Positions 1 to 26,415 of a stretch of DNA of 64,000 bases are shown here, piece by piece. Made by a program: the position numbers and the translations under genes. Numbering within the stretch: position 1 is the stretch's first letter; each line of letters starts with the position of its first letter. Under the pieces are notes generated by a model that saw only the letters and a program-made list of their open reading frames with translations, had not been told where the DNA came from and ran no database searches. This DNA comes from an uncultured Candidatus Saccharibacteria bacterium (GTDB taxonomy: Bacteria > Patescibacteriota > Minisyncoccia > Phycocordibacterales > PALSA-1337), in assembly GCA_964412585.1 (NCBI GenBank), contig CAYPPJ010000001.1, forward strand, positions 149,334 through 213,333, given 5' to 3'.

Positions 1-653
1 CAGCTGCTGATCATATCGTGGGCAATCCAAATGCGGCCATACGCATTGTTGAATTTTCGGATCCGTCATGCCCATTTTGCAAGACATTTCATCCGACAAT
101 GAAAAAGATCATCGATGAATACGGCCCGACTGGAAAGGTTGCATGGGTCTATCGCTCTTTTCCTCTCGATAAACCTGATGCACAGGGACGTATTCTTCAT
201 CCAAATGCAGGACATGAGTCACAGGCATTTGAATGTGCAGCATCACTTGGGGGCAATGAGGTATTTTGGAAGTTTGCTAACCGTCTCTACGAGATCACCC
301 CTTCAGACAAAGGGCAGAGTCTCGACCAAAAAGAACTTCCCGTTATTGCAAAATTTGCTGGGCTTGATCCAGTTTCATTCAACGAATGTTTGACAAGCGG
401 ACGATTCGCAGAAAAAGTTGAGAAGCAATATCTTGATGGTGTAAACGCGGGCGTAGCCGGAACTCCAACAAATATTTTTGTTCTCTCAAATCCAGCTTCT
501 AAAAATATGGATGTGGTAATATCTGATTTGGCGGTTCAGCTTCAAGTACCGATTGCTATTTCCACTGACCGTATGCGCATCTTGATGAGTGGAGCGTTGC
601 CTGAAACGGCTATAAAGGCAGTGTTGGAGCCGTTGCTGATGGAAGTGAAGTAG
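1..653 (+). CDS. DsbA-like thiol:disulfide oxidoreductase (thioredoxin fold, CPFC active site); 5' end outside window
   Basis: The frame is open from nt 3 (AADHIVGNPNAAIRIVEFSDPSCPFC...). The CxxC motif in DsbA-type context is seen in the translation. The ORF track's GTG start at 18 is probably internal. Confidence 0.7.
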   Translation, partial: AADHIVGNPNAAIRIVEFSDPSCPFCKTFHPTMKKIIDEYGPTGKVAWVYRSFPLDKPDAQGRILHPNAGHESQAFECAASLGGNEVFWKFANRLYEITPSDKGQSLDQKELPVIAKFAGLDPVSFNECLTSGRFAEKVEKQYLDGVNAGVAGTPTNIFVLSNPASKNMDVVISDLAVQLQVPIAISTDRMRILMSGALPETAIKAVLEPLLMEVK

Positions 654-666
654 GATGTTTGACTCT

Positions 667-3716: not shown

Positions 3717-4484
3717 TTAGGCCGTCACCGCTTGAATTTTCTTTCGAAAAACGACGAGGCCAAGCGAAGCAAGGCCGAGCGAGGCAAGGTTTGAGCCGTT
3801 GTCAGGGACGGAAGAGCTCTTCAGCCCGACGTTGATGTTATCAAATTCTTGAACGAAGCTCTCGCCCTTATTGTACGCCTGAGCGAACACTGTGCGGAAT
3901 TGGGAAGTTAAGGGTCCCAGCGTCGTGTCACTGTAAACCGAATTCCCATTCAGAACGTAGTCAACCGAGCTACCGTTGTAGCTGATATCAATGTCGTATT
4001 GCCCCGCAACTGCAGAGCCACCAAGATTGACCCAGCCAATGTCACTGTCCCAGACACGCAGCGTCGAGCCAATATAGCCGAGGATAAAATAATCAGCTCC
4101 GACTTCGGTCCCAACATTCCCAGTGCTGCCCCAAAGGTCCGAACGTTGTCCCCCGCTAATCTGGTCGGACGTCACAAAGAGTTGGCCGGTAAGTTGCCAA
4201 TTGCCGTTAACCAGCGCCTGATGTTGCCGCCCTTGAGTGTTGTAAAACGTACTATTGTACGCCGGCGGACGATTGGCCTGGCTATCCGCGCTGGAGATGG
4301 TAATCTGCAGACGCCCTCCGACAGAATTGAAGCCCGCAGGCTCATACCGATCAGTCACCCAACCAGCAGACGGTGGACCTGTGAAGGTGTCCGTAAACGG
4401 GACGGCAAAGGAGGAATTTGAAGGGTTAATAACCGCCACAGCAAGTGCCATGGCGCCGATAATACCGACGTTAACGTGTTTCAT
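3717..4484 (-). CDS. secreted protein with PEP-CTERM-like (VPDSG-type) C-terminal sorting signal
   Basis: N-terminal signal peptide. The C-terminus is ...SSSVPDNGSNLASLGLASLGLVVFRKK, i.e. a VPDxG motif, a hydrophobic helix and a basic tail. It is GC-rich relative to its neighbours. Confidence 0.6.
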   Translation of the reverse strand: MKHVNVGIIGAMALAVAVINPSNSSFAVPFTDTFTGPPSAGWVTDRYEPAGFNSVGGRLQITISSADSQANRPPAYNSTFYNTQGRQHQALVNGNWQLTGQLFVTSDQISGGQRSDLWGSTGNVGTEVGADYFILGYIGSTLRVWDSDIGWVNLGGSAVAGQYDIDISYNGSSVDYVLNGNSVYSDTTLGPLTSQFRTVFAQAYNKGESFVQEFDNINVGLKSSSVPDNGSNLASLGLASLGLVVFRKKIQAVTA

Positions 4485-4538
4485 TCAACTATTGGGTTTT
4501 GTTACTTACTGCACCTCTCTGGCGCAGATTCGCGACAA

Positions 4539-4567
4539 AATATAGCACGAAGTTATAAAATTGGCAA
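4539..4567 (-). promoter_or_regulatory. sigma70-like promoter (TTGCCA-N17-TATATT) for 3717..4484 gene
   Basis: Hexamers read on the minus strand, 55 nt upstream of the ATG. Confidence 0.35.
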
Positions 4568-4591
4568 GAATAAAGCCGCAATGGAGCGGCT
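4562..4591 (-). terminator. rho-independent terminator after rpoD
   Basis: AGCCGC-aatgga-GCGGCT hairpin followed by TTATTCTT on the minus strand, immediately downstream of the rpoD stop. Confidence 0.45.
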
Positions 4592-4626
4592 GTATTCAAT
4601 ATCTGCAACAAATGCACTAAATAACG

Positions 4627-5874
4627 TTAGTAGTTCTTGAGTCGATTGATCTTCTCGTGCTGACGAATCTTCTCATGAGCCTTGGCCTCAATCTGACGAA
4701 TACGTTCACGAGTAACACCAAACTCCTTCCCTACTTCTTCGAGCGTATGAGTAATGCCATCCATGAGCCCATGACGCATCTCAAGAATCTTGCGCTCCTT
4801 TTCTGAAAGATCATTGAGGATCATGTTGACCTGGTCACGAAGAATACGGCGTGAGGACTCCTGGTCTGGTGGAAGTATCTTGTCATCAGGGATAAAGTCC
4901 TGGAGAGTCGATTTACCATCATCACTATCATCACCAACGGGATTTTCGAGTGAGACGACATCCTGTTCGATCTTTTCAATCTGGTAAATCTTGTCGACAT
5001 CCATACCCATCTCAGTAGCGATCTCATCTGGCAATGGCTCACGTCCCAAATCATGTGAAAGACGGCGAACTACCTGTTTGTATTTTGCAATAGTTTCAAC
5101 CATGTGAACTGGAACACGAATAGTACGTGACTGATCGGCAAGCGCACGGGTAATAGCCTGACGAATCCACCACGTGGCATATGTCGAAAACTTGTATCCC
5201 TTGGTCCAGTCAAACTTATCTACGGCACGAAAAAGACCAAGGTTTCCTTCTTGGATAAGATCGAGAAGTGTGAGATCGGGACTGCGTCCAACATACTTCT
5301 TCGCAATAGAAACAACGAGACGGAGGTTGGCCTTTGCAAGAAGATTCTTTGCCTCGATATCTCCTGCCTGAATACGCTTTGCCAAATCTTTTTCGTCCGA
5401 AGCAGTAATAAGTGGGTACTGACCAATCTCTTTGAGGTACATCTGGATAGAATCGTACGCGGAGTCAGATGAGCTCGTACGAGAATAGTGGGTTGAAGGT
5501 TTCTTTGGAGTAAGATCCTCGATCTCGAGCAAACCTCCACCTTCAAGAACATCGACGTTTGCTGCGCCAAATTTGCTGTACAACTCATCGAGAAACATAA
5601 TGTCGTTCTCGATCTGTGGGAACTCCTTCATGATCTCATCATAGGTAATGAAACCGCGGTCACGACCCTTGTTGATGAGCTTATTGGCACGTACCTCAAA
5701 ATCCTTGGCCTTGTCTACTTTTGACATCGGCTTGCCTGATTTACCTACACTTTTACCTTTTGCTGCTGGTTTCGAAGTCTTGCCAGCTTTTGACTTAACA
5801 CGAAAAACCGCACGCTTTACTGGACGTCGGCTGGCTTTACCGGACTTTTTTGCCCCTTTTTTTGTTTTTCCCAT
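4627..5874 (-). CDS. rpoD: RNA polymerase sigma factor RpoD (primary sigma-70)
   Basis: Region 2 to 4 motifs are present ([51 protein letters not shown]). The N-terminus is Lys-rich. Confidence 0.9.
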
Positions 5875-5967: not shown

Positions 5968-7797
5968 TTACAGCCTCTTTTTATGAGCAACCTCCGCTTT
6001 ACGTAAGGACAACACCTGGCATTTCTTTGCCAATTCAGTTACGCCCGCCATATTCCCTGCTTTCTCAGCCTGTTTAAGTTCTGACATGGTAGAAATAAGT
6101 TCGACACTAATCATGTCTTCTTCAAAATTGACAATAAGTTCCTTCATGTGCCTGTCCCATTCTTTCGCATCACTCCCAAAGACTGCTTCAGCCTCAAAAG
6201 CGAGGTCATTGATCATGGCTTCGACTTGAGCATGTAGTGCGGTATATGAATCACCGGCAATCTTTTGAATTTCGGCTCGGTAATTCTTTCCTTGATCTGG
6301 TGATGATTTTTCAATATGAAATAGAAGGCCAAAGAGACGACGTGAAATGAGGTCGAGTTGAATGGGGACTCCTCCGACAGCACTACCTCCCCCGGACACG
6401 CCGTCGACCTCTGCTGAGGTCGCGGCTGGTTCTCGGCCGCCTTCGCGGCCTCCGAAGCGTCCGGTTGAGGTAGTGCCTGCCGGAGTCGCCCCTCCAACTT
6501 GAGCCGCCTCAACTTTAACTTTCTTCAAGTCATCCCATACTGCCGCCTCAGATATATTCGTCTTGTCCGAAATCATTTTCACAAAATGTGCCTGATCCAT
6601 ACGACTATCAATGCGCGCCAAAAATGGAAATACACGCTCTCGAAGTCCACGGCCAATCTTTCGTGGATCTGGAATATCACGCATGACATTGCCAAGCTCA
6701 AATTCGATAATTGGTTTTGCCGCCCTCAACGCTTGTTTCCAATCTTCGGGATTGTGGAGCACCAAATCAGCTGGATCCTTGCCACCGACCAGGTCTGCAA
6801 TCTTCACATCCATACCCATCGAAAGCGCGATACCGGCGGCGCGCATCGCAGCTTTTCTACCCGCACTGTCGGAATCAAACGCGATAATGACATTGGGCGA
6901 CAGACGACGCACAAGACCGAGATTGCTGACTGCCCCACTTTCGCTAAAAGACTCATCGGTCAGTGCGGTACCTGAAGATGCAACAGTATTCTTGATACCC
7001 GCTTGATGTGACATGACCAAGTCCATTTGCCCTTCGACCATGATAGTGTAATTCATGCGACGAATGTCACTCTTTGCTTTATCGAGTCCATAGAGCACGA
7101 GAGATTTGTCATACAATGGAGTATCCGGGCTATTCAAGTATTTTGCTGATTTTCCGTCGTCTTTTAGTATGCGGCCTGAAAATGCAATAACACGGCCACT
7201 CGAATCTGATATGGGAAACATCACACGACCACGAAAACGATCGTAAAACTTACCATCATCTGTCTTCTTGCCCAGCCCCGCCTTTTCAATAAGCATGTCA
7301 GAGTATTTCTTGACTCTCAGATGATCAATGAGCGATTGCCACCCTTCGGGAGCCCAGCCAATGCGGAACTCTTGGCGTGTTGCATCATTAATGCCGCGTT
7401 TCTTCACATATTCTTTTACCTCCTTATTCTTCGTAAATTGATCCTCAAAAAAAAGTGCTGCGGCTTCCATGATCTCAAAAAGCCTATCTCGCTCGCCGTC
7501 CGCTTTTTTATCAAAAGTTAGTTGCACTCCCGCTCGTTCTGCCAACACTTTTAACGCTCCACGAAAATCAAGCCCCTCAAACTGCTCGACGAAAGTGAAA
7601 ATATCACCTTTCGCATTGCAGCCAAAACAGTAGTACCCACCACGATCCGGAGACACGAAAAAAGAAGGCGTCTTTTCATTATGGAAAGGACACTTGGCCT
7701 TGAAGGCATTGCCAGATTTTTCCAGCTTGAGATACTGACCAATCACTTCATTGACTGGTAGACGCTCTTTGATTTGTTCGACAATAGTCCTATTCAT
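5968..7797 (-). CDS. dnaG: DNA primase DnaG
   Basis: Zinc finger CPFHNEKTPSFFV...CFGC, TOPRIM region, and a C-terminal domain. It lies immediately upstream of rpoD in the classic operon order. Confidence 0.9.
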   Translation of the reverse strand: MNRTIVEQIKERLPVNEVIGQYLKLEKSGNAFKAKCPFHNEKTPSFFVSPDRGGYYCFGCNAKGDIFTFVEQFEGLDFRGALKVLAERAGVQLTFDKKADGERDRLFEIMEAAALFFEDQFTKNKEVKEYVKKRGINDATRQEFRIGWAPEGWQSLIDHLRVKKYSDMLIEKAGLGKKTDDGKFYDRFRGRVMFPISDSSGRVIAFSGRILKDDGKSAKYLNSPDTPLYDKSLVLYGLDKAKSDIRRMNYTIMVEGQMDLVMSHQAGIKNTVASSGTALTDESFSESGAVSNLGLVRRLSPNVIIAFDSDSAGRKAAMRAAGIALSMGMDVKIADLVGGKDPADLVLHNPEDWKQALRAAKPIIEFELGNVMRDIPDPRKIGRGLRERVFPFLARIDSRMDQAHFVKMISDKTNISEAAVWDDLKKVKVEAAQVGGATPAGTTSTGRFGGREGGREPAATSAEVDGVSGGGSAVGGVPIQLDLISRRLFGLLFHIEKSSPDQGKNYRAEIQKIAGDSYTALHAQVEAMINDLAFEAEAVFGSDAKEWDRHMKELIVNFEEDMISVELISTMSELKQAEKAGNMAGVTELAKKCQVLSLRKAEVAHKKRL

Positions 7798-7830
7798 AGG
7801 TGTATTATAGAGTATAGGCCCCTGGAAACA

Positions 7831-10524
7831 CTATTGACTCAAAAGTGAGTTTATGACTTGTATAGTTTTTGTATCCACAACACCAGTCCCCTGTGACACA
7901 CCTAACGGAACGAGTAGCTGCACTGGATGCGCCTCTTGAAAACGAATGACTGCAGCACGTGTTGCTGGACCAAAAAAATCTGTTTCATTACCAGAAGATC
8001 CGGGCCCTGAAAGGGCAACAAGAAAATTGTTACGATTCAAGAATTTTTGCAATACAAGTACATCTGGATGGCGAGAGCCTAGTGAAAGAAATGTCGAAAG
8101 TCGAACTTGTTGAATCGCGCCGGCTGGGCTTGTCGAACCTACTGTTGCACCTAAAATTGGCGTACAAATCATGTTAGCAGGACATCCTACAGCAACTACC
8201 GGTGAACGGAGCATATCAGCACGATAACGTGCAAGTGCAGCAGCTGTAATTGGCCCAAAATATCCTGTCGTATGATCAAAATCCATATACCCCTTTCCTG
8301 CAAGATACGTTTGCAATGCCAACACTTCTGAACCCCTCATGCCAACTCCTAATGCTGAATACTGATACGTAAAGCTCGTATTTAGTGATGGAACAATTGT
8401 GATTGGTATGCCTGGTACTGAGGCTGCCTTGAGAGATGTGGCAACATCAGCAGCATATTTCTTGACCGCAGCATCGGTAATAGGTCCAAAGTACCCCGTA
8501 ATACGGTCTGCACTCATGTATCCCTGTGACAGTAAAAATTTTTGAAGTCCCAGAACCGCGTCGTTCCTTGTACCAACCACCAAATGTGCATACGATGCTG
8601 GAATTTGAGGAAGTATTTTTCGAGGTTGAACAGTCGGCATTACTACTGTTGGTATCTGTACCGCTACGACTGGACTTGCCGCAGCCCCAGCACCACCACC
8701 CCCTCCGCCGCCTCCCCCGCCACCACCTCCGCCGCCAGAATTTGAAACTGAGGATGTTACCGCGTAGATAATGCTTGTCTGTGATGTGTTGCCAGCGTCG
8801 TCATAGGCAACGATCATATACCCATAGGTTGTAGCAGCTGCTAATCCCACGTGACTATAGGAAAGATCTGAAGGTGTCGTACTCAACAGATCCGACGGTA
8901 CGCATGATGCACCATTACATCCATACACTCGATATCCTGCGACACCACGTGAGTCAGTCGACGCTTCCCACGAAAGTCGTATATTACTACTTGAAAACGT
9001 ATTTGCTGAAAAGTTTTGAGGAACTGATGGCGCTGTAAGATCAAGTACCGCAACATTTGAGAGTGGAGATGAGTTTCCAGCAGCATCTCGAGAGATCAGA
9101 GCAAAATAATAAGTCTGAGTAAGCGCTGGTAAATTTATATTGTATACCTCAGGACTGCCTGAGACATACGGAACAGGTTGTAGTTGATTTGGCCCGTACC
9201 CTTCCAAAGGATTGGGCATGACCGTTATCAGCTTATCGCTCGAAAAAGTCAGGCTCGTAATTTCGGTTGATGTCGAATATCTGATTTCATATGCAGTTGA
9301 TGTCCCATAACTTCCATTATTGCCAGGTGCCGTCCATACCAGTGTCGTAGTACCTATATCTGAAAGCTGCGTCACTGACAAATCTGCAATTGTCGATGGT
9401 TTGGTGAGATCAACGAGTTCGATCGGAGTACTACTGTATGTCAGCTTGTATATCCCCGCATCTCCTACCGCGTACACTACTCCTGAATCATATGGGTCTG
9501 TCACAACTTTTTTTATTGCCACATCAGATAGATCTTTTTGGATGGGCAACCATTGGGGAATCTGTGGATCAGCATCAAGAATAGCCTCATTCGTCGTACG
9601 ATACACACCGCTTCCATAGACTGCAGCATAGGCGACATTTGAGTCAGTATAATCACTGGCAACAGTACGCACGGATCCTGATGGCAAGCCGGTACTCGAT
9701 GACGCAAAGTGTACACCACTATCATTACTCTTATATATTCCCTTGTCTGTTGCGATCCAGGCCAGGTTGCCAGACGCATGCAATACGCTGACATCATTGG
9801 TTGTAGTACCATTGGCGCTAAAAATGCGTGACCAGTTTTCATATGTACCTGAAGAAGACCTGAGCGCACTCGAGTACACATCATTGCCATTTGTTAGGGC
9901 AAAAATCTCGGCACTACCAAATGCAGTGGTGAGCTTCTTTGCGTATCCCGAAAGTCCAGTATTATCAGCTCTCCAATATGAACCAGTGGTAGTACTTATG
10001 AATACACCACTCGGTGTCGCTGCATATAGTGTGTTAAAACTGCCCTGGGTTGCTTGATATTGATCAATTGTAATGTCCAAAATAGAATTGTCACTCAAAC
10101 CGGTGCTCGTGGCAATCCATACGGGATCACTCAAGGTACTGGCGAAAATCCCGCCATCCGAAGTACCTGCAAATATATATGTCGAAGATGTGGTGGCATA
10201 CCGATCAGTGCCTGAATCATAGATCCATCCTATCGCAAGTGATGTCACATCTACATGCGGACCGAGGCCAGTGTTTACCTGGGTCCAGGATTGGCCACCA
10301 TTGATGCTTTTGAATACCCCGTGATCCGTTGCAAGATACAGAAATGAGCCGATGCCAGCAATTGTATTAAATTGATACCCTGATGCACCTGGTGGAGTGA
10401 TTGTCTCCCACTGATCGGTTGCCGCGCATACTGGCATGGCGGCTATGCACAATGCCCATAGTATGAGCATCGCAATGTAAGGGTTCGGATACCGAAAATA
10501 AGTCATGATGGATAATACAGACAC
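7831..10524 (-). CDS. large secreted surface protein: BNR/Asp-box-like repeats, FN3 domains, Gly15 linker, three C-terminal peptidoglycan-binding (PG_binding_1-like) repeats
   Basis: Signal peptide. Motifs seen in the translation: SINGGQSW, YKSNDSGVHF. FN3-like segments, then a Gly15 run, then three LxxxLxxxGY....G.FGP.T..A...YQ repeats. Confidence 0.7.
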   Translation of the reverse strand: MSVLSIMTYFRYPNPYIAMLILWALCIAAMPVCAATDQWETITPPGASGYQFNTIAGIGSFLYLATDHGVFKSINGGQSWTQVNTGLGPHVDVTSLAIGWIYDSGTDRYATTSSTYIFAGTSDGGIFASTLSDPVWIATSTGLSDNSILDITIDQYQATQGSFNTLYAATPSGVFISTTTGSYWRADNTGLSGYAKKLTTAFGSAEIFALTNGNDVYSSALRSSSGTYENWSRIFSANGTTTNDVSVLHASGNLAWIATDKGIYKSNDSGVHFASSSTGLPSGSVRTVASDYTDSNVAYAAVYGSGVYRTTNEAILDADPQIPQWLPIQKDLSDVAIKKVVTDPYDSGVVYAVGDAGIYKLTYSSTPIELVDLTKPSTIADLSVTQLSDIGTTTLVWTAPGNNGSYGTSTAYEIRYSTSTEITSLTFSSDKLITVMPNPLEGYGPNQLQPVPYVSGSPEVYNINLPALTQTYYFALISRDAAGNSSPLSNVAVLDLTAPSVPQNFSANTFSSSNIRLSWEASTDSRGVAGYRVYGCNGASCVPSDLLSTTPSDLSYSHVGLAAATTYGYMIVAYDDAGNTSQTSIIYAVTSSVSNSGGGGGGGGGGGGGGGAGAAASPVVAVQIPTVVMPTVQPRKILPQIPASYAHLVVGTRNDAVLGLQKFLLSQGYMSADRITGYFGPITDAAVKKYAADVATSLKAASVPGIPITIVPSLNTSFTYQYSALGVGMRGSEVLALQTYLAGKGYMDFDHTTGYFGPITAAALARYRADMLRSPVVAVGCPANMICTPILGATVGSTSPAGAIQQVRLSTFLSLGSRHPDVLVLQKFLNRNNFLVALSGPGSSGNETDFFGPATRAAVIRFQEAHPVQLLVPLGVSQGTGVVDTKTIQVINSLLSQ

Positions 10525-16843: not shown

Positions 16844-18019
16844 ATGAAAATGAAATCAATCGTTGTAGCAATCCTGGCGTTGTCGCTTTTCAGCGCAGTC
16901 GCCCAAACACCCGTCAACATTACGCTAGCCAAAAAGGCGGCGTATATTGTCAGCTTCCCAGCGGAGGCTGGGGTCGAATACACCATCCAGTCCTCGACGA
17001 ACATGTCGGATTGGATGAACGTCACCTCAATGCAAACGACAGGAGGCACAGTCTCCTACACGGATGTCGTTGACGATCATGGGCAAGGGTTTTACCGCGT
17101 GATAGCTTCGGCGACTACCGGTAGTATCCTTGTGAAACTGGATACGGCGCTTTCGCCGCCAGCTCAGATCGTGCACATATCAACCACCTCAGAAACGGAC
17201 CTGGTTCCCCTGGCGGTGTTTGATGTAAAGTCAGTTGGGAAAAATGGCACGTTAAGCACGATGAATATACAAGTCGCAACCACCGGCACGAATGTGATCA
17301 ACATGTTTACCGACATCAAGATCAAGGCCGGCGGGTCAACATATTCCGCAGACCTAATCGTCGGGAGTATTGCCCACTTTGCGAATTTGGTAATCCCCCT
17401 GCCACAAGATCAATTCCTTCCGATCACTGTGTACGGTCGAGTGGCACGAAATGTCGGCAACATGCTCGAAGGTGCGACTGCACAGGTCTCACTCGTGGCA
17501 TCCGCTGACCTCCACAATCCATATGTCATGGATGCGCAATTCAATACTATGCCGGTCAATAATTCAGTCAGTGTCGGCGCAGTAATGACCTTTGCGTCTC
17601 AAGCTGCTATTACTAGCAACTTGACGACCTCGAGCATTCCGCTCGTGAACGTGTCCAACGTGCTGTCGTACGCCGTAGGCTTCGGATATACACTGACCGC
17701 AGCAGACTCAACTCTGTACGTCAGCAAAAATCCGACTGATGCTGCAACATTCTCAGTTGGAGTCGCATCGGTGCTCGGCGGATGGTCAGGCATGGTGACG
17801 ACACCAAACGTACTTGCTGGTGACACGGTGGATTATTTCGTAGTCCCAGCTGGAAGCAGCCGATCGTTCGTGATCGCTGCCAACCTGAGTCACGTTGGCA
17901 ACGGCATAGGTTCGGCGCAAATCAACGCGCTTAACTTCGGCCTGTCATCAGGAAATCTCACTGGGTACTCCGTCACCTACGGGCTCAGCACCCTCAATGT
18001 GACCCAGGTGTTTCCGTAA
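16844..18019 (+). CDS. secreted hypothetical protein (N-terminal shared 'SSTNMSDW...FYRV' module)
   Basis: Signal peptide (MKMKSIVVAILALSLFSAVAQT). The shared module sits right after the signal peptide. Confidence 0.55.
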   Translation: MKMKSIVVAILALSLFSAVAQTPVNITLAKKAAYIVSFPAEAGVEYTIQSSTNMSDWMNVTSMQTTGGTVSYTDVVDDHGQGFYRVIASATTGSILVKLDTALSPPAQIVHISTTSETDLVPLAVFDVKSVGKNGTLSTMNIQVATTGTNVINMFTDIKIKAGGSTYSADLIVGSIAHFANLVIPLPQDQFLPITVYGRVARNVGNMLEGATAQVSLVASADLHNPYVMDAQFNTMPVNNSVSVGAVMTFASQAAITSNLTTSSIPLVNVSNVLSYAVGFGYTLTAADSTLYVSKNPTDAATFSVGVASVLGGWSGMVTTPNVLAGDTVDYFVVPAGSSRSFVIAANLSHVGNGIGSAQINALNFGLSSGNLTGYSVTYGLSTLNVTQVFP

Positions 18020-20018: not shown

Positions 20019-21200
20019 ATGGCCCGAAACATTATTACCGGAATCGACGTCGGCACATACCATGTCAAAGTGGTTATTGCGAGCACCAAAGAAAAGACGG
20101 AGCGCGGCCAACCAAAGATCATTGGCGTGGGTATCGCCGAGTCTCGTGGTATTCGCCATGGATACGTAACCAATGTGCGCGATGTAGCTGACAGTATCCG
20201 CTCTGCAGTCAGGATTGCCGAGGAAAAATCTGGTCTCAAGATTAGGAAAGCCTTCGTGGGCGTCGGTGGTATCGGACTCAGCGCCACTGCAGTCAATAGT
20301 TCTATCATTACCTCACGAGCCGATGCAGAGATTACCGAGCTCGACATTGCCAAGCTGCGTGAACAGTGCGAAAAAGACATGCCTCAAAATGCCAAGGCCA
20401 ACCGTCGTATTATCTACGAAATACCCGTCCAGTATAAGATTGACAATTTTCCTTCGCTTGGTGCACCTATCGGCATGACCGCAAACAAGATCGAACTCAA
20501 AACTCTCTATATCACCTGTCTTGAACACCATGTCGCCGATCTTATTGCTGCTGTCAATGAAGCGGGTATAGAAGTTGAGGATATTATGGCAGCACCGATC
20601 GCGGCTGCTTTTGTCACGTTGACCAAAGCACAAAAAATAGCCGGGTGTGTACTCGCAAACATTGGAGCCGAGACGGTGTCTATTGTAGTATTTGAAAACA
20701 GCATCCCTGCTTCGCTTGAAGTATTCCCTATTGGATCTACTGATATTACCAATGATATTGCCCTTGGACTCAAAGTTCCTCTCGAAGAGGCAGAGCAGAT
20801 CAAGATTGGAGCCATCACCGGTTCATCATATCCTCGCAAAAAACTTGAGGAGATAGTGAGCGCTCGCTTATATGATATTTTTGAACTGATTGAAGCTCAT
20901 CTCAAAAAAATGGGTCGTAACGGACTTCTACCAGCAGGTATCATTATCACTGGTGGTGGATCAGCACTCAACTCCATCGATGATCTAGCCAAAGCCGCAC
21001 TCAAACTACCGTCACGCATTGGTTCTATAGGCCTTATCGATGGTAAGTCTTCATTCAAGGACAATCCACTTTCCGTTGCGTATGGTCTCTGTATTTGGGG
21101 TGCACACGCTGATGATAGTTCAGAGATAGATACTTCTGGTATTATCTTGAAAAATATATGGAAACGCATCCAGCGCACCATGAAGCAGTTTTTGCCATAA
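20019..21200 (+). CDS. ftsA: cell division protein FtsA
   Basis: Actin-fold motifs GIDVGT...K, GAETVSIVVFENS, IITGGGSAL. Confidence 0.9.
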   Translation: MARNIITGIDVGTYHVKVVIASTKEKTERGQPKIIGVGIAESRGIRHGYVTNVRDVADSIRSAVRIAEEKSGLKIRKAFVGVGGIGLSATAVNSSIITSRADAEITELDIAKLREQCEKDMPQNAKANRRIIYEIPVQYKIDNFPSLGAPIGMTANKIELKTLYITCLEHHVADLIAAVNEAGIEVEDIMAAPIAAAFVTLTKAQKIAGCVLANIGAETVSIVVFENSIPASLEVFPIGSTDITNDIALGLKVPLEEAEQIKIGAITGSSYPRKKLEEIVSARLYDIFELIEAHLKKMGRNGLLPAGIIITGGGSALNSIDDLAKAALKLPSRIGSIGLIDGKSSFKDNPLSVAYGLCIWGAHADDSSEIDTSGIILKNIWKRIQRTMKQFLP

Positions 21201-21243
21201 ATTTCTACCTTCATTACAATAGAAAATAATACACCCCGCAGCG

Positions 21244-21272
21244 GCGACGCTGCGGGGTTTTTGGATCATGAG
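21244..21272. terminator. bidirectional rho-independent terminator
   Basis: CCCCGCAGC-ggcgac-GCTGCGGGG followed by TTTTT on the plus strand and A/T-rich on the minus strand. Lies between convergent ftsA and the 21279 gene. Confidence 0.6.
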
Positions 21273-21278
21273 ATCCTG

Positions 21279-22661
21279 TTACTTCTTCAACGCCTCAATG
21301 AGGAGCTTCGCAGCGTCCACCATCTCAGGCAGATTCTGCAGCTGGCCTTTGAGACTGATTCCCACACGCCCGATGACCGCGTACAACTGCTCTTCGGTCA
21401 TGTGAGTTGCCTTGGCAAGTGCGGCAGCCTTCTGCGGCGTGAAGTCATCCATGTTGGAGATCACGAAGATGGTCATGTCGCGATAGGCATTGACGATCGT
21501 GCCCATCACAGCCAACGAGGGTTTTGCTTCGGCCCGTTCAGGCTTGGGAGGTTTTTCACCTTTTGGTGTACGAGGCTTGTAGGGCCCGCGACTGGCTTTG
21601 CGGGAACCACTTTTCTCCGACGCGGTGCCAGCTTCATCCTTTGATTCGCCTGGCTTTTCCCCTGGCACGAATTCGTCCGGAATGGCCTTCGCCACAGCAT
21701 CAACCATGCGACCAAACTCGTTTTTGCCAGTGGCGTAACGAGCTTCAGCGCGCTTGAACACCGTCATGGCGTTACTTGCACTGGGCATGCCCTTTCCGAC
21801 CGCAATGTCGGCCCAAGGAACATCGAATTTCCGTGCCACGAAGACCACAGCTTCCTTGACCCGCGAATTGATGTCGCCAGATCCACGGACGCCGGTTGCA
21901 AAAACATCCGGATCCGCCTTGAGTGACTCGCAGAATGCGAGAATGAGGAACTCGATCAACGACCGAGGTTTCTTGGTTGCCATAGAATCACCGTTTCTTT
22001 CTTGGGGTTGTGCTGGGGCACTGACTGCGCCCCCAGCGTTTGTTGTTGCTTCGACAGGTTGCCGCCTCACCACCGTTTCCTCTGCCTTCTTATCGTCGGC
22101 CGGGGCTTCAGGTTTTGTTGGAGGCTTTTGGGCCACCACAGGAGGACGTAGTGGATCCGAAGGCTCCGGAGGAGCAGGCGACTCCACGAGCCGTGATGGA
22201 GGTGCTAGCCTCGGTGGAGCGATAACGCTACTGCCACCATTGAGACGAGCCTGAGACTTGTCCACAGGAAGGCAACTAAAGTGCCATTTCATGGGATGAG
22301 TCTTGCTCCGACATTCGAAGTCGAGCATTCCGTCGTCATTGACAGACTCAGGTGCGATGAAGATATCACCGTCATCAACCATGTTCATGGGTTTGTCTTC
22401 TTCGCCCATAAACCGAAAATCCCGTATCTGCCCTTTGCGATGCTGACCGAGGACGAGGAGATAGAGGTCATCTCCACTAAACGAAGCCGCTGCCCCCGCC
22501 TTATCTGTGGGGAAAAAGCTGTGGCGAATGCCGGCTTTGTGTAAAAAGTGAGCTGCCTTTGAATCCCGGCCAAGCTCAGCACCGTCGGAGACAAGGCGAA
22601 CCGTGTCTACCACCAAAACAATCTGACTAAGCGGAACCAACTCTGTCTGTTGTGAGCTCAT
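21279..22661 (-). CDS. hypothetical protein, GC-rich, with Pro-rich linker (possible degenerate metallophosphoesterase-like N-domain)
   Basis: 460 aa. N-terminus has GDDLYLLVLGQHR. The middle is PPRLAPPSRLVESPAPPEPSDPLRPPVVAQKPPTKPEAP. The C-terminus is alpha-helical. GC is clearly above flanking ftsA/ftsZ. Opposite-strand ORFs here look like antisense shadows. Confidence 0.55.
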   Translation of the reverse strand: MSSQQTELVPLSQIVLVVDTVRLVSDGAELGRDSKAAHFLHKAGIRHSFFPTDKAGAAASFSGDDLYLLVLGQHRKGQIRDFRFMGEEDKPMNMVDDGDIFIAPESVNDDGMLDFECRSKTHPMKWHFSCLPVDKSQARLNGGSSVIAPPRLAPPSRLVESPAPPEPSDPLRPPVVAQKPPTKPEAPADDKKAEETVVRRQPVEATTNAGGAVSAPAQPQERNGDSMATKKPRSLIEFLILAFCESLKADPDVFATGVRGSGDINSRVKEAVVFVARKFDVPWADIAVGKGMPSASNAMTVFKRAEARYATGKNEFGRMVDAVAKAIPDEFVPGEKPGESKDEAGTASEKSGSRKASRGPYKPRTPKGEKPPKPERAEAKPSLAVMGTIVNAYRDMTIFVISNMDDFTPQKAAALAKATHMTEEQLYAVIGRVGISLKGQLQNLPEMVDAAKLLIEALKK

Positions 22662-22812
22662 GGCTTGGGCCTTTCATTTTCATGGAGCCCCGAAATTGAG
22701 GATCCGATACGTCTGCGCAAAAACTACCACGCTCAACAACGGCTGGCAATAGTGTCAATAAATTTACAAAAAATATATCTGTGTCCTAATAACATATTCT
22801 TCCCCAGCCTCC

Positions 22813-22840
22813 TTGCACCCTTTTCATAACTTGATATGAT
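22813..22840 (+). promoter_or_regulatory. candidate ftsZ promoter TTGCAC-N16-TATGAT
   Basis: Hexamers about 130 nt upstream of ftsZ. Weak. Confidence 0.25.
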
Positions 22841-22967
22841 AGAGAACGTAATATCTATCACGACGTCACAGACGACCTCGGAGTTTGCACCCTGAATACC
22901 ACTGTCCGTAAGCAATCATCCGTCGGTCGCTTTTCTTTTCCCCTGATAATCAATTTAATTACCCATC

Positions 22968-24170
22968 ATGCCCAACATTACTCCCGATATCGAAGCATTT
23001 GCACGCATCAAAGTACTTGGCGTTGGTGGTTCTGGTGGCAATGCAGTCAACCACATGATCTCCTCGAAAGTTCGCGGCGTTGATTTTATTGCGATCAATA
23101 CCGACTCACAGGATCTCCATCGCTCTCTCGCAAAGAAACGCGTTCATATTGGAAAAAATATCACCCGCGGACTCGGTACTGGCATGAATCCAGACCTTGG
23201 ACGACGTGCCGTCGAAGAGACTCGCGACGAGATCCAAGAAGTTGTTAAAGGCGCCGACATGGTGTTCGTAACCTGCGGACTCGGAGGCGGTACAGGCAGC
23301 GGCGCAAGCCCTATGGTCGCACGTGTTGCCAAGGAGCTCGGCTGTCTCACGGTCGGCGTTGTCACCAAGCCATTCTTCTTCGAAGGTCGCCAGCGTTCGC
23401 GCATTGCAGAAGCCGCTCTTGAGGATCTTCGCAAAGAAGTAGACGCCATCATTGTTATTCCGAACGATCGACTGCTTTCAGCTATCAGCAAGGAAACCAG
23501 CGTCAAAAATGCGTTTGCTATGTGTGATGAGATTTTGCGCCAAGCAGTCGAAGGCATCTCTGACCTCATTACCACACCAGGTCTCATCAACATCGACTTT
23601 GCCGACATTCGTACTGTTATGGAAAATGCCGGCTCTGCCCTCATGGGTATCGGTAATGCTTCAGGGGAAAACCGCGCTATCGAAGCAGCAAAGGCAGCCA
23701 TTAACTCACCACTTCTCGATGTGTCTATTACAGGCTCAAAGGGCGTCCTCTTCTCTATTGCTGGTGGTGAAGATCTCACTATGTTCGAAATCCAAGATGC
23801 CGCAAAGGTTATTACCGAGTCTATTGACCCTGAGGCCAAAATCATCTTCGGTACTGTCCGCGATGACAAGCTCAAGAAAAATGAAATCAAGATCACTGTT
23901 ATTGCGACTGGTTTTCCTGAGAGCAACACCGCTTCACCACGCACATCTTCACCTGTTTCGGCTGAGCCAACGATCGCTTCGATCATGAAGAGTGCCGCCG
24001 AAAAGGGTGACCGCGGCGAACGACCAGAACGAGGCAAGATTTTCAATACCATGTCTGACGTCAAACGAGACGCGGTTCCAGAAAAAAAGGTTGAAAAAGA
24101 AGAGAAGAAAGATGACGATGATGATTGGGGTGCGATACCGGCGTTTCTCCGAAGAAGTAAGCTTAAATAG
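22968..24170 (+). CDS. ftsZ: cell division GTPase FtsZ
   Basis: Tubulin signature GGGTGSG and GVGGSGGNAVNHM. Acidic/basic C-terminal tail. Confidence 0.95.
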   Translation: MPNITPDIEAFARIKVLGVGGSGGNAVNHMISSKVRGVDFIAINTDSQDLHRSLAKKRVHIGKNITRGLGTGMNPDLGRRAVEETRDEIQEVVKGADMVFVTCGLGGGTGSGASPMVARVAKELGCLTVGVVTKPFFFEGRQRSRIAEAALEDLRKEVDAIIVIPNDRLLSAISKETSVKNAFAMCDEILRQAVEGISDLITTPGLINIDFADIRTVMENAGSALMGIGNASGENRAIEAAKAAINSPLLDVSITGSKGVLFSIAGGEDLTMFEIQDAAKVITESIDPEAKIIFGTVRDDKLKKNEIKITVIATGFPESNTASPRTSSPVSAEPTIASIMKSAAEKGDRGERPERGKIFNTMSDVKRDAVPEKKVEKEEKKDDDDDWGAIPAFLRRSKLK

Positions 24171-25300: not shown

Positions 25301-25675
25301 GGATTTTCTCACTAGCTCAAACAGACTCGTCTCTAAGTAGCATATTCTTTTAGTTAGTCTTTTCGTATCAATAACTTTCAATTGAGTAATAACCGCTGTC
25401 GCTGTTTTTCCGTTTACTATTCCTATTTGGATACGAAAATGGTGCCTGAGCTGAGAGGAAGTCAGGGGCACGACGAGACACGTCGTAGCACTTAATCCTT
25501 TTAGAATTAGAACTGGCCGTCTATATTCACTACTTTTACCGTCATACTCGTCACCAAGATTAACACCAAGAGTACACCACCAAATCTCCCTCTCGTGATA
25601 ATATCCATGAGTTTTACTGTCGTAATGAAGCCGCTTTTTTTGTGTATCCCACCCATCAAAATCTTTTACTATCAT
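25283..25675 (-). CDS. MazF/PemK-family endoribonuclease toxin
   Basis: EIWWCTLGVNLGDEYDGKSSEYRRPVLIL...LVVPLTSS and IDTKRLTKRICYL align to MazF/EndoA by eye. Confidence 0.8.
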   Translation of the reverse strand: MIVKDFDGWDTQKKRLHYDSKTHGYYHEREIWWCTLGVNLGDEYDGKSSEYRRPVLILKGLSATTCLVVPLTSSQLRHHFRIQIGIVNGKTATAVITQLKVIDTKRLTKRICYLETSLFELVRKSAKDLL

Positions 25676-26226
25676 AGAGATTTTGATGTCTTGTAATCAG
25701 GCCCCACGCACGCACCCCACAATCCTTTTTTGTTCTTTTTTGCCTCTTTCTCAATTTCTCTAAACTCTCGCTGATGCTGATATGGTGTACCAAACGTATA
25801 TTCGCGCGCATATCCTTCCTTGAGTAGTTGCTCATTCACAAACACATCTCCTAGAAATACATACGCCAAATAGCGCCCGTATTTATCCTTTTCCTCTCTA
25901 TCTGGATTTAGTTTCAGTCTGACTGATTGTTCAGTGAGTAAATGCTTGGTTTCATCTGATGCTGCTTTACCATAACACTGGATCGGTTTGCGGGGATCGA
26001 CGGTCTCAGGCGTATCTATGCCGAGCATGCGAACCGTTTCAACATGACGTCCAATTTTGACATTGAATGTATCACCATCTTTGACCTCTGTGACCTGATA
26101 AAGTTCATTCTCATCTATAGACGGACCAGTAAACGCGCGAACAATTACATACCCAGTAAACACACACGTGCACACAATAAGCACGGTAACGACGACGAGA
26201 AACGTCGTGATTTTCTTGTATTCCAT
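25672..26226 (-). CDS. membrane-anchored thermonuclease (staphylococcal nuclease/SNase-like)
   Basis: Start set at the internal ATG at 26226 (MEYKKITTFLVVV TM anchor), because the longer ORF overruns tRNA-Glu. SNase motifs GDTFNV, VRMLGIDTPE, YGRYLAYVF. Its stop overlaps the mazF-like start by 4 nt. Confidence 0.8.
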   Translation of the reverse strand: MEYKKITTFLVVVTVLIVCTCVFTGYVIVRAFTGPSIDENELYQVTEVKDGDTFNVKIGRHVETVRMLGIDTPETVDPRKPIQCYGKAASDETKHLLTEQSVRLKLNPDREEKDKYGRYLAYVFLGDVFVNEQLLKEGYAREYTFGTPYQHQREFREIEKEAKKNKKGLWGACVGPDYKTSKSL

Positions 26227-26261
26227 TTTTCGTAATGATGACGTTGCAGGCGTCTTCCCAG

Positions 26262-26333
26262 TAGCCCTACGGGGAATCGAACCCCGATTACCGCCTTGAA
26301 AAGGCGATGTCCTAACCGTTAGACGATAGGGCC
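26262..26333 (-). tRNA. tRNA-Glu (TTC), CCA not encoded
   Basis: Acceptor GGCCCTA/TAGGGCT, D arm GTCT-AACGGTTA-GGAC, anticodon loop TTTTCAA, T arm CGGGG-TTCGATT-CCCCG. 72 nt. Confidence 0.85.
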
Positions 26334-26415
26334 AAACGTGTGTCAGTATCCTACCATTTTTTGAAAAAATGGCAAAAAATGCTAAGGTATAGCGGTTCAT
26401 CACCGCAACTACCTT

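Follow-up and report, generated by a model that had tools for sequence, protein, structure and literature searches.

Several described bacterial systems provide points of reference for a gene located between the cell division genes ftsA and ftsZ. ZipA possesses a long, proline-rich, disordered, and length-variable spacer between its two ends, as does the protein described here, whose gene lies beside ftsZ. SlmA, Noc, and MatP, the folds of which are TetR, ParB, and ribbon-helix-helix, respectively, would share with this protein only the concept of pairing DNA binding with another interaction module in the setting of cell division. Divergent helix-turn-helix (HTH) autoregulators (LysR-type and many others) and a neighboring gene are read outward from a shared region, which is likewise the layout found between the gene and ftsZ, where this region spans ~300 bp and holds two conserved promoter-like blocks. 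A further reference is the DNA-binding domain IV of DnaA, in which the basic-loop arginine entering the minor groove is R399 and the residues reading the DnaA box are D433, H434, T435, and H439 (E. coli numbering). To our knowledge, hardly any work exists on how the ultra-small, host-dependent Patescibacteria divide, and few of the regulators involved are known.

Here, we analyzed a stretch of 64,000 nucleotides from an uncultured Saccharibacteria bacterium (the window), for which a first-pass annotation had pointed out a 460-aa open reading frame (ORF) on the minus strand between ftsA and ftsZ.

Gene locus, composition, and distribution

The ORF list agrees with the position of this ORF, and Pfam identifies both neighbors (Table 1). 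The statement that the gene interrupts the ftsA-ftsZ adjacency was likewise borne out, as the two genes are direct or nearly direct neighbors (gaps of ~40-260 nt) in most of the surveyed Saccharibacteria relatives having both ftsA and ftsZ on the contig. The minus-strand ORF is coding: homologues of its product are 25-85% identical, and dN/dS is well below 1 in three domains. Compared with the closest allele (locus L015), dN/dS amounts to 0.38 over the whole gene; by folded domain it is 0.20 (N-terminal), 0.36 (middle), and 0.037 (C-terminal), and it reaches 0.5-0.7 in the linkers. Same position and orientation in nine populations (the window, L001, L002, L004, L007, L009, L010, L011, and L015), this dN/dS pattern, and the kept ribosome-binding site, promoter-like blocks, and terminator hairpin show that the ORF is a genuine gene with folded domains under purifying selection. 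Two plus-strand ORFs of 127 and 166 aa lie antisense to it.

Table 1. Features of the ftsA-ftsZ region, in window coordinates.
Feature	Position	Strand	Details and basis
ftsA	20019..21200	+	393 aa, convergent with the gene under study; Pfam FtsA 4e-22, SHS2_FTSA 1.5e-10
GC-rich hairpin between the 3' ends of ftsA and the gene	21233..21258	.	11 bp perfect stem, 4 nt loop; terminator-like on both strands
Coding sequence, 460-aa protein	21279..22661	-	ORF list; ATG start, stop codon included
C-terminal HTH, then long terminal helix, residues 389-460	21282..21497	-	
Basic disordered linker, residues 333-388	21498..21665	-	Net charge +5; pLDDT <50; composition
RGPYKPR motif inside second linker, residues 358-364	21570..21590	-	Alignment
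Helical domain with predicted DnaA domain IV fold (TrpR-like HTH), residues 226-332	21666..21986	-	
Pro-rich disordered spacer, residues 141-225	21987..22241	-	pLDDT <50; 18 Pro in 85 residues; sequence and length hypervariable
N-terminal beta-sandwich with C-terminal helix, tentatively PH/PTB-like, residues 1-140	22242..22661	-	Structure prediction
Ribosome-binding site AAAGG	22670..22674	-	8 nt before ATG; read from sequence; GAAAG invariant in 7 loci
Small conserved hairpin, 5' leader of the gene	22684..22705	-	Consensus of 7 pairs, mostly one-sided changes, covariation weak
Candidate promoter of the gene	22721..22749	-	-35 TTGCCA (22749..22744), 17 nt spacer, TGg + TAGTTT (22729..22721); read from sequence
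AT-rich block AATTTACAAAA...TGTGTCCTAATAA, possible operator, between the divergent promoters	22757..22795	.	Conserved in 6 of 8 gene-bearing loci
Candidate ftsZ promoter	22813..22840	+	TTGCAC (22813-22818), 16 nt spacer, TGa + TATGAT (22832-22840)
Second TTGCACCCT copy, ftsZ leader	22885..22893	+	72 bp past the first; conserved in 6 loci
ftsZ	22968..24170	+	400 aa, divergent from the gene; Pfam Tubulin 2.5e-47, FtsZ_C 1.3e-33

The ORF had been described as having a GC content of about 55-57%, against about 45% in both flanking genes; the measured values are 55.2% for the ORF, 46.5% for ftsA, and 50.1% for ftsZ, the last of which departs from the stated 45%. With a GC3 of 0.57, the ORF lies ~1.5 standard deviations above the window mean of 0.465 (sd 0.069), and five other window genes reach at least 0.586. 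Its GC1 (0.63) ranks with the highest values in the gene list of the window, its GC2 exceeds that of most, and its GC-richest parts are the two linkers, so the excess is partly a matter of amino-acid composition. A recent import recognizable by foreign GC disagrees with the eight other related populations carrying the gene at the same site as well as with L002, a GC-richer relative in which the gene has a lower GC3 (0.59) than both flanking genes (0.74-0.75). The first-pass annotation had itself held that relatives having the gene at this position with native GC would speak against its proposal, and this is largely what was found. Taken together, the GC excess is modest and represents a weak signal.

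Across relatives, FtsZ is 91-98.5% and FtsA 82-95% identical, compared with 25-49% for this protein (85% for the L015 allele). Identities per domain are incongruent between alleles, and dS toward L015 is lower in the gene (0.22) than in its flanks (ftsZ 0.72, ftsA 1.08), with the reverse being found toward L004. These sequence comparisons characterize the gene as very fast-evolving, with a mosaic history in which modules are swapped by recombination, a process that blurs gain versus loss. Its position is stable across relatives with saturated synonymous sites.

Homologue searches retrieved 6 sequences from 5.8 billion proteins and 14 representatives from 1.84 billion proteins, and second and third word-indexed searches added a single new member (P0017). 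The gene had been suspected to be lineage-specific, which is supported. All traced members of the family, which is unannotated, are Patescibacteria, and no description of this family or arrangement was found in the literature. At the ftsA-ftsZ junction the gene is found in one genus-level Saccharibacteria clade, in which it is present in some members and absent from others, showing it to be accessory. L017/L055 (FtsA 88% identical) and L018 (83%) are devoid of it and have ftsA-ftsZ spacers of 126-150 nt; they nest inside the gene-bearing clade in four out of four trees (without support values). About 20 other Saccharibacteria loci host unrelated genes at this junction, and no remote homology was found between the protein and the ftsA-ftsZ gap ORFs of other Saccharibacteria. 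In the distant relatives L091 and L092, the N-terminal domain and the HTH half are encoded by two genes lying next to each other, and in L007/L008 a frameshift comes between these modules. Family members from a Paceibacterota genome and from other contigs are located away from ftsZ, indicating an ancestral function not tied to ftsZ.

Domain architecture of the encoded protein

According to structure predictions, in which the folded domains are confident in places, the protein appears to be modular, consisting from N- to C-terminus of a PH/PTB-like sandwich, a spacer, a DnaA-IV-like domain, a basic linker, and an HTH with a long helix. A whole-protein profile had no match in the PDB, and leads came solely from domain-wise profiles.

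The N-terminal domain, modeled at low confidence (pLDDT 50-72), has PTB and PH as nearest folds; we tentatively regard it as PH/PTB-like, a fold type that binds partners or ligands. The degenerate metallophosphoesterase-like GDD...GQHR pattern previously proposed for this part dissolves upon comparison of the six closest homologues, in which the residues vary (SGDD/SGDE/GAEE/QEND and GQHR/AQQR/GQHC/GERR/NNHR). Calcineurin-like metallophosphoesterases keep their metal-binding motifs (D-x-H, G-D-x-x-D-R, and G-N-H-D/E) invariant in any one family. Metallophos was not matched by Pfam at E ≤1 or 10, and a small beta-sandwich is predicted where a metallophosphoesterase would have an alpha-beta-beta-alpha sandwich. 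With the motif unconserved, Pfam blank, and the fold wrong, this identity was rejected. Inspection of residues 1-30 by eye gave no hydrophobic stretch of at least 18 residues that could serve as membrane anchor, the N-terminus being predicted as beta-strand.

A Pro-rich linker does exist as annotated, with a length of ~85 aa rather than 50 aa. Its identity among alleles is only 10-25% (78% in the closest pair), with a dN/dS of 0.69. Similarly, the helical nature of the C-terminal half was recognized correctly, but instead of a single domain it comprises two helical domains with a second, basic linker between them. This linker harbors the motif R-[GR]-P-Y-K-[KP]-R, of which R358, Y361, K362, and R364 are invariant in the homologue alignment and which is still recognizable in the distant members P0010, P0016, and P0017. 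The C-terminal domain matches HTHs of sigma, LacI, AsnC, and DeoR proteins in profile and structure searches, and no Pfam HTH model reached threshold for this protein.

Residues 226-332 are predicted to form a TrpR-like HTH bundle, and the models show them to have the fold of the DnaA DNA-binding domain: the top six Foldseek matches of this domain are all DnaA, and in an independent sequence-profile search of the PDB, DnaA domain IV was the sole match, albeit sub-significant (T. maritima DnaA, E = 0.12). Bac_DnaA_C had no match in Pfam scans at E ≤10, nor did Pfam match an AAA+ domain, the preceding 225 residues being beta-sandwich and disordered spacer. A Pfam match to DncV_C (E 0.003-0.02, below cutoff), covering part of this domain, was taken as chance. 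In the weak sequence-level alignment to T. maritima DnaA, the invariant R259 within G-x-R-G aligns with the basic-loop arginine, and the invariant G-M-P...N (residues 291-297) coincides with the beginning of the recognition helix. Those stretches that touch DNA in DnaA would accordingly be the best conserved ones in this family. The DnaA-box-reading positions, mapped through T. maritima DnaA onto the E. coli sequence, are occupied by P293, S294, S296, and T300.

Candidate promoters, leader, and terminator

The hairpin located where ftsA and the gene converge folds at -32.5 kcal/mol (z = -6.0) and scores on both strands in a terminator scan, in agreement with the bidirectional terminator annotated after ftsA. 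An equivalent hairpin of different sequence is predicted in eight out of eight loci folded, being weaker in L011 and L007.

Upstream, the gene and ftsZ share a region of 306 bp (22662-22967), inside which two conserved promoter-like blocks are separated by ~65 bp. The gene seems to be equipped with a promoter, a ribosome-binding site, and a terminator of its own, and to stand back to back with a promoter dedicated to ftsZ. Both elements of the candidate promoter of the gene sit in conserved blocks of the intergenic alignment, and a consensus scanner did not call them. The candidate ftsZ promoter represents the most conserved block of this alignment; in L017 and L018, which are devoid of the gene, the same element comes after the ftsA stop codon. 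The AT-rich block is absent from L010 and L011, both of which carry very divergent alleles, and its TGTGTCCTAATAA motif shows no enrichment elsewhere in the window. Exact TTGCACCCT copies occur twice in 64 kb against 0.58 expected, and at least two were obtained in 12 of 100 shuffles. In L010, the promoter and leader of ftsZ have barely changed, while the HTH domains of the protein are only 22-33% identical to those of the window. This pattern argues against the sequence-specific recognition of conserved ftsZ DNA by a co-evolving regulator.

Proposed function and alternative explanations

The explanation we prefer, with somewhat more belief than doubt, is that of a cytoplasmic protein of modular build, which probably binds DNA, belongs to a rare Patescibacteria family, is encoded by an accessory gene divergent from ftsZ, and acts as adaptor or regulator. 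DNA binding is what we infer from the modeled folds. The two HTH modules together with the basic motif would hold the protein on DNA, at a target presumably other than the DnaA box, since a different motif, which the family conserves, stands where DnaA contacts the bases. Carried on the long flexible spacer, the PH-like domain might catch a second partner. As most economical target, the shared 306-bp control region can be considered; in that case, the protein would control its own gene and also modulate the transcription of ftsZ, with ftsZ control being speculative. It is the position of the gene that links it to division, and relatives equally close but devoid of it, as well as members away from division genes, weaken such a role.

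Alternatively, the gene might be cargo of horizontal exchange, i.e., a conflict-related accessory gene (defence, exclusion, mobile remnant) occupying a permissive spot, the ftsZ neighborhood being incidental. Presence and absence within one clade, hyperdivergent mosaic alleles with a history decoupled from the flanks, the unrelated inserts at other ftsA-ftsZ junctions, and the slightly raised GC are consistent with this reading. We nevertheless consider it unlikely, as it is a single gene without integrase, flanking repeats, or tRNA target; its GC3 is just slightly elevated, and even below that of the flanks in L002; and its position is stable despite saturated synonymous sites. Neither paralogues nor flanking direct or inverted repeats, the scars of mobile elements, were detected in the window. 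The phage-derived insertion raised by the first-pass annotation found no backing, with 0 PHROGs families and nothing matched by tblastn among 50,697 phage records, and phage origin was rejected on present evidence. All 14 members matched 0 PADLOC families, and identity as a defence system was discarded as well.

Rather unlikely is a division tether or spatial regulator that attaches to FtsZ, FtsA, or the membrane through its PH-like domain and to the chromosome through its HTH half, with the Z ring being coupled to or excluded from the nucleoid. Such a protein would work in the manner of Noc, SlmA, or MatP and have a flexible spacer like that of ZipA. The location between ftsA and ftsZ in nine populations and an architecture in which a fold of a type that binds peptides or lipids is joined by a long disordered spacer to DNA-binding folds speak for it; we also counted in its favor that Patescibacteria are not known to have Min and Noc systems. 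However, L017 and L018 are as close as the carriers and live without the gene, having FtsZ C-terminal tails 1-2 substitutions from that of the window. This tail (DDDDDWGAIPAFLRRSKLK) hardly differs between carriers and non-carriers of the gene and shows no covariation with its presence. Furthermore, the protein diverges down to 25-30% identity with FtsZ staying at 91-98%, which makes a fixed interaction surface unlikely, and homologues in other Patescibacteria reside away from division genes. Pfam gave no match to ZipA_C, ParB, or TetR, and no Noc/SlmA-type ParB-like or TetR-family DNA-binding domain was matched in Pfam or NCBIfam. A chromosome-divisome coupler specific to Patescibacteria, with DnaA-like and HTH modules on the nucleoid and the PH-like domain capturing FtsZ, FtsA, or the membrane, is improbable. 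If true, minimal cells thought to lack Min and Noc would gain a means of positioning or timing the Z ring, and the rapid modular evolution would represent adaptation to the chromosome or host-attached lifestyle of each lineage.

Even less credence is given to a replication-linked regulator, in which the DnaA-IV-like module acts at DnaA boxes or origin DNA, competes with or assists DnaA, and couples initiation to division. The closest fold of the middle domain fits this idea, as does a distant short-form member encoded two genes downstream of a clamp-loader-like AAA+ gene (DNA_pol3_delta2). It is opposed by the replacement of the box-reading residues by P/S/S/T in the weak DnaA alignment, the absent AAA+ domain, the unmatched Bac_DnaA_C, and the lack of origin context in the window. 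Finally, a non-coding artefact of GC-rich sequence or a degenerate metallophosphoesterase, suggested by the long antisense ORFs and the GDD...GQHR pattern, has a negligible probability, being already refuted by conservation and selection on the minus-strand product, its confidently modeled folded domains, the varying motif residues, the missing Metallophos match, and the beta-sandwich predicted for its N-terminus.

Several points emerge from this locus. The ftsA-ftsZ junction of Saccharibacteria is not fixed but a permissive spot for lineage-specific genes, and ftsZ seems to be served by a conserved promoter that does not depend on ftsA. At this junction, one clade carries an unannotated, probably DNA-binding protein, which re-uses the DnaA fold outside the replication initiator. 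Should the protein target ftsZ or the Z ring, it would offer a first way into the control of division in the phylum; if not, it is still a clean case of how a regulator-like gene that is accessory, recombining, and fast-evolving exists in a reduced genome. In either case, the protein represents a new domain family worth annotating.

Comparison with known systems

Residues 141-225 resemble the long P/Q-rich flexible linker of ZipA, the only part to which this comparison applies. In contrast to ZipA, an N-terminal transmembrane helix is not evident by eye, ZipA_C is absent according to Pfam, and the C-terminal half is predicted to consist of DNA-binding folds. SlmA, Noc, and MatP differ in that the folds found here (DnaA-IV-like and HTH) are unrelated to theirs, with no sequence match, and belong to an accessory hypervariable gene. 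Compared with PH/PTB-like domains of eukaryotic adaptors and bacterial PH-like domains, the low-confidence model of the N-terminal domain has an extra helix after the first strand and no sequence similarity. The basic linker motif is like an AT-hook in appearance only.

Divergent HTH autoregulators match the arrangement of the locus, but the protein belongs to no such family; moreover, the ftsZ promoter is unchanged in relatives without the gene and kept where the HTH domains of the protein diverged strongly. DnaA domain IV differs from the copy found here in several respects: the latter has its own motif G-M-P-S/T...N in place of the box-reading residues, lacks a preceding AAA+ domain III, fails the Pfam model, and sits between two disordered linkers alongside a PH-like domain and a second HTH. 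The fold of this domain is closest to that of DnaA domain IV, to which its profile match is weak but unique, with an invariant arginine possibly in the basic-loop position and a conserved motif starting the recognition helix.

Evidence for a translated gene between ftsA and ftsZ

Judged from sequence comparison, the minus-strand ORF of 460 aa that the first-pass annotation placed between ftsA and ftsZ is a real gene. Five homologues with 38-85% identity were retrieved from 5.8 billion proteins, and searching 1.84 billion cluster representatives exhaustively with a profile yielded 14 family members, none of them named or carrying a Pfam domain. Compared with the closest allele (relative locus L015, 85% identical), dN/dS was 0.20 in the N domain, 0.36 in the middle domain and 0.037 in the C domain, with 0.69 and 0.53 in the two linkers. 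This is what would be expected of a translated protein in which two disordered spacers separate three folded domains. Homologues and per-segment dN/dS thus speak against a non-coding minus strand, which the annotation had considered, and the plus-strand ORFs within the gene are antisense by-products.

Where ftsA and the gene converge, a hairpin with a folding z-score of -6 separates their 3' ends (table). The GC content of the ORF (55.2%) exceeds that of ftsA (46.5%) and ftsZ (50.1%), a contrast that had been overstated: GC3 (0.57) lies ~1.5 sd above the window mean (0.465, sd 0.069), and five other window genes reach at least 0.586. Among the listed genes the ORF ranks near the top for GC1 (0.63), and GC is highest in its two linkers, where Pro, Ala, Gly and Lys/Arg abound; the excess is therefore partly compositional. 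A 391-aa ORF, Thr/Ser/Val-rich with a signal-peptide-like N-terminus, shows similarly raised GC (52%, GC3 0.60) and may be a surface protein. The 5' end of the listed 243-aa SNase-like ORF runs into a tRNA gene, the true start probably being an internal Met (MEYKKITTF...) downstream of the tRNA.

Coordinates of features in the window, in the 460-aa protein and in related loci
Location	Feature	Position	Strand	Remark
Window	391-aa ORF	16844-18019	+	
Window	ftsA	20019..21200	+	Pfam
Window	Perfect 11-bp GC-rich hairpin between 3' ends	21233..21258		terminator score, both strands
Window	460-aa ORF	21279..22661	-	ORF list; ATG start
Window	AAAGG ribosome-binding site of gene		-	
Window	Small hairpin in 5' leader of gene	22684-22705	-	weak covariation
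Window	Candidate gene promoter, TTGCCA, 17 nt, TGgTAGTTT	22749-22721	-	read from sequence
Window	Candidate ftsZ promoter, TTGCAC, 16 nt, TGaTATGAT	22813-22840	+	highly conserved
Window	TTGCACCCT, two copies	22813-22821; 22885-22893		
Window	ftsZ leader, ~125 nt	22841-22967	+	strongly conserved among gene-carrying loci
Window	ftsZ	22968..24170	+	Pfam
Window	SNase-like ORF as listed	25672-26403	-	
Window	tRNA gene	26262-26333	-	
Protein	N domain	residues 1-140		PH/PTB-like, tentative
Protein	Pro-rich spacer	residues 141-225		disordered; 18 Pro in 85 residues; hypervariable in sequence and length
Protein	Middle domain	residues 226-332		DnaA domain IV fold
Protein	Basic linker	residues 333-388		disordered; net +5; invariant R358-x-x-Y361-K362-x-R364
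Protein	C domain	residues 389-460		predicted helix-turn-helix, then long terminal helix
L007; L008	Split homologue	620-2153; 559-2092		
L091; L092; L093	Adjacent N-domain and HTH-half genes	4200-5707; 2387-3551; 1378-2542		
L019; L020; L022; L066	ftsA-ftsZ gap with YdjM-like gene	7191-7750; 1520-2134; 7185-9073; 731-1426		
L001/L005	N run	~1130-1290		

An accessory gene at a variable junction

On the opposite strand between ftsA and ftsZ, the gene is found in the window, which comes from an uncultured member of the Saccharibacteria (TM7), and in the relatives L001, L002/L003, L004, L007/L008, L009, L011, and L015; in L010, too, it diverges from ftsZ, the contig stopping before ftsA. Longer loci share the order small unnamed ORF (rpsU position), ybeY, ftsA, gene, ftsZ, trxB. 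In the public MAG contig L001/L005, an N run merges ftsZ and trxB into an apparent 728-aa ORF, and the stored gene calls miss the ftsZ present there, listing a spurious 159-aa antisense ORF instead.

Scanning of JGI metagenome contigs with FtsA gave 74 loci (FtsA identity 49-90%), most with an ftsA-ftsZ gap of ~40-260 nt and none with a homologue of the 460-aa protein. Its presence in one genus-level group bears out the proposed lineage specificity. L017/L055 (FtsA 88%, FtsZ 92% identical to the window) and L018 (83% and 90%) lack the gene, yet stand no farther from the window than L001, L002, and L011, which carry it. Their ftsA-ftsZ spacers comprise just 126-150 nt, with the same ftsZ promoter-like element right behind the ftsA stop codon. 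They nest in the gene-bearing clade in four neighbour-joining trees (without support values), built from FtsA, from FtsZ, from the two combined, and from ftsA DNA; the gene is therefore accessory within this genus-level group.

In some 20 Saccharibacteria loci that are more distant, ORFs unrelated to the gene fill ftsA-ftsZ gaps of 350-1900 nt; four of these loci encode a YdjM-like membrane protein, and the fillers also include a kinase-like ORF and several ORFs of 100-300 aa on the opposite strand (further gap-filled loci: L025, L035/L088, L046, L048, L058, L062, L067, L081, L087). The junction thus looks like a recurrent insertion hot spot in Saccharibacteria. In Nanosynbacter lyticus TM7x, ftsZ is TM7x_00785 and ftsA TM7x_02800 (bioRxiv 10.1101/2022.03.25.485537); provided that the tags reflect gene order, they lie far apart and ftsA-ftsZ adjacency is not inviolate in the phylum.

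Allelic exchange and the control region

Between the window and gene-bearing relatives, identity amounts to 91-98.5% for FtsZ, 82-95% for FtsA, 81-93% for TrxB, and 70-89% for YbeY, compared with 25-49% for the 460-aa protein (85% in L015). Per-domain identities between alleles are incongruent: in the N domain, the family protein P0001 groups with P0004 and P0005 (71-73%), in the middle domain with P0003 (87%) and not P0004 (27%), while in the C domain P0003 groups with P0004 (93%), P0005 and P0006 being unrecognisable (14-22%). Adjacent genes in one genome pair differ several-fold in dS (0.22 for the gene, 0.72 for ftsZ, and 1.08 for ftsA against L015; >2.5, 0.21, and 1.16, respectively, against L004). 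Taken together, domain incongruence and dS decoupled from the flanks show that the region frequently recombines homologously among related Saccharibacteria, shuffling alleles and modules. Flanking repeats, an integrase, or a tRNA target were not found at the gene. L010 retains the conserved ftsZ promoter and leader but differs in all sequence upstream of the -35, where the gene's own promoter region lies; what varies as a unit is therefore the gene together with its control region.

Eight loci were aligned over the 306 bp that separate the gene from ftsZ. Both candidate promoters are our own reading, neither being called by a consensus promoter scanner. The ftsZ leader differs from that of the gene-less L017 and L018. 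TTGCACCCT occurs only twice in the 64-kb window, both copies lying upstream of ftsZ, 72 bp apart, one overlapping the -35 element of the candidate ftsZ promoter and the other within the leader. Six related loci conserve the two copies; the pair is suggestive without being statistically strong, since at least two matches arise in 12 of 100 shuffles.

Domain architecture and split modules

Two AlphaFold2 models (one from 6 sequences, mean pLDDT 58; one of residues 226-460 from 14 sequences, pLDDT ~90 in the middle domain) together delineate five segments (table). The arginine- and tyrosine-containing core of the basic linker is recognisable even in distant family members, and the C domain gave sub-threshold matches to sigma region 4, LacI, AsnC, and DeoR. 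In a weak profile alignment to DnaA, the invariant G-x-R259-G would fall on the basic-loop arginine and the invariant G291-M-P...N297 on G-R-D-H-T-T; by this alignment, the DNA-touching parts of DnaA are the most conserved here, but the residues reading the DnaA box are replaced. DnaA residue numbering is that of the E. coli protein, reportedly as in Fujikawa et al. 2003. The degenerate metallophosphoesterase-like pattern noted in the first-pass annotation was rejected, the motif being variable and without model or fold support.

In distant relatives, the HTH half is a separate protein of 222-263 aa (P0015, P0016, and P0017) and the N-domain is encoded by the gene immediately upstream. One such upstream protein, L092_124, matches the N-domain profile (E = 5e-5, four-sequence search); another, L091_233, shares N-terminal and terminal-strand motifs by eye. 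In L092/L093 the pair lies behind a gene for a clamp-loader-like AAA+ protein (DNA_pol3_delta2). L007/L008 show the same division of the gene: a frameshift within the Pro-rich spacer, shared by two independent assemblies, yields overlapping ORFs of 206 aa (N-domain) and, counted from its ATG, 230 aa (two HTH domains), which make up a genuine split gene or else a pseudogene. Halves fused in some genomes and adjacent in others argue that they work together.

Proposed function

We commit to an accessory, modular DNA-binding adaptor or regulator. DNA binding itself is likely, and we infer from the alignment that its specificity would be other than the DnaA box. That the protein acts on ftsZ or on the control region shared by the two genes is possible but doubtful: the gene and ftsZ are divergently arranged and the inter-promoter block is conserved, whereas the ftsZ promoter is present unchanged without the gene, it remains conserved in cases such as L010 despite divergence of the HTH domains to 22-33% identity, and family members elsewhere have other neighbours. 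Among them, the full-length P0013, annotated as a Candidatus Paceibacterota hypothetical protein, has genes for glycosyltransferases and peptidases around it; the family therefore extends beyond Saccharibacteria and has no intrinsic tie to division genes.

Exchangeable conflict-related cargo is an improbable reading of the shuffled alleles; searches of PHROGs, PADLOC, and phage genomes gave nothing for the family, which leaves the proposed phage-derived insertion unsupported. For a protein encoded beside ftsZ with a predicted DNA-binding half, a tether between nucleoid and divisome may be envisaged, quite improbably given family members that lie away from division genes. A replication-linked DnaA-box binder, recalling the DnaA domain IV fold with its replaced box-reading residues, is very improbable.

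The adaptor or regulator that we favour belongs to a family described neither in Pfam, NCBIfam, PHROGs, or PADLOC nor in the literature that could be searched. Its folds are known; their combination and genomic setting are new.
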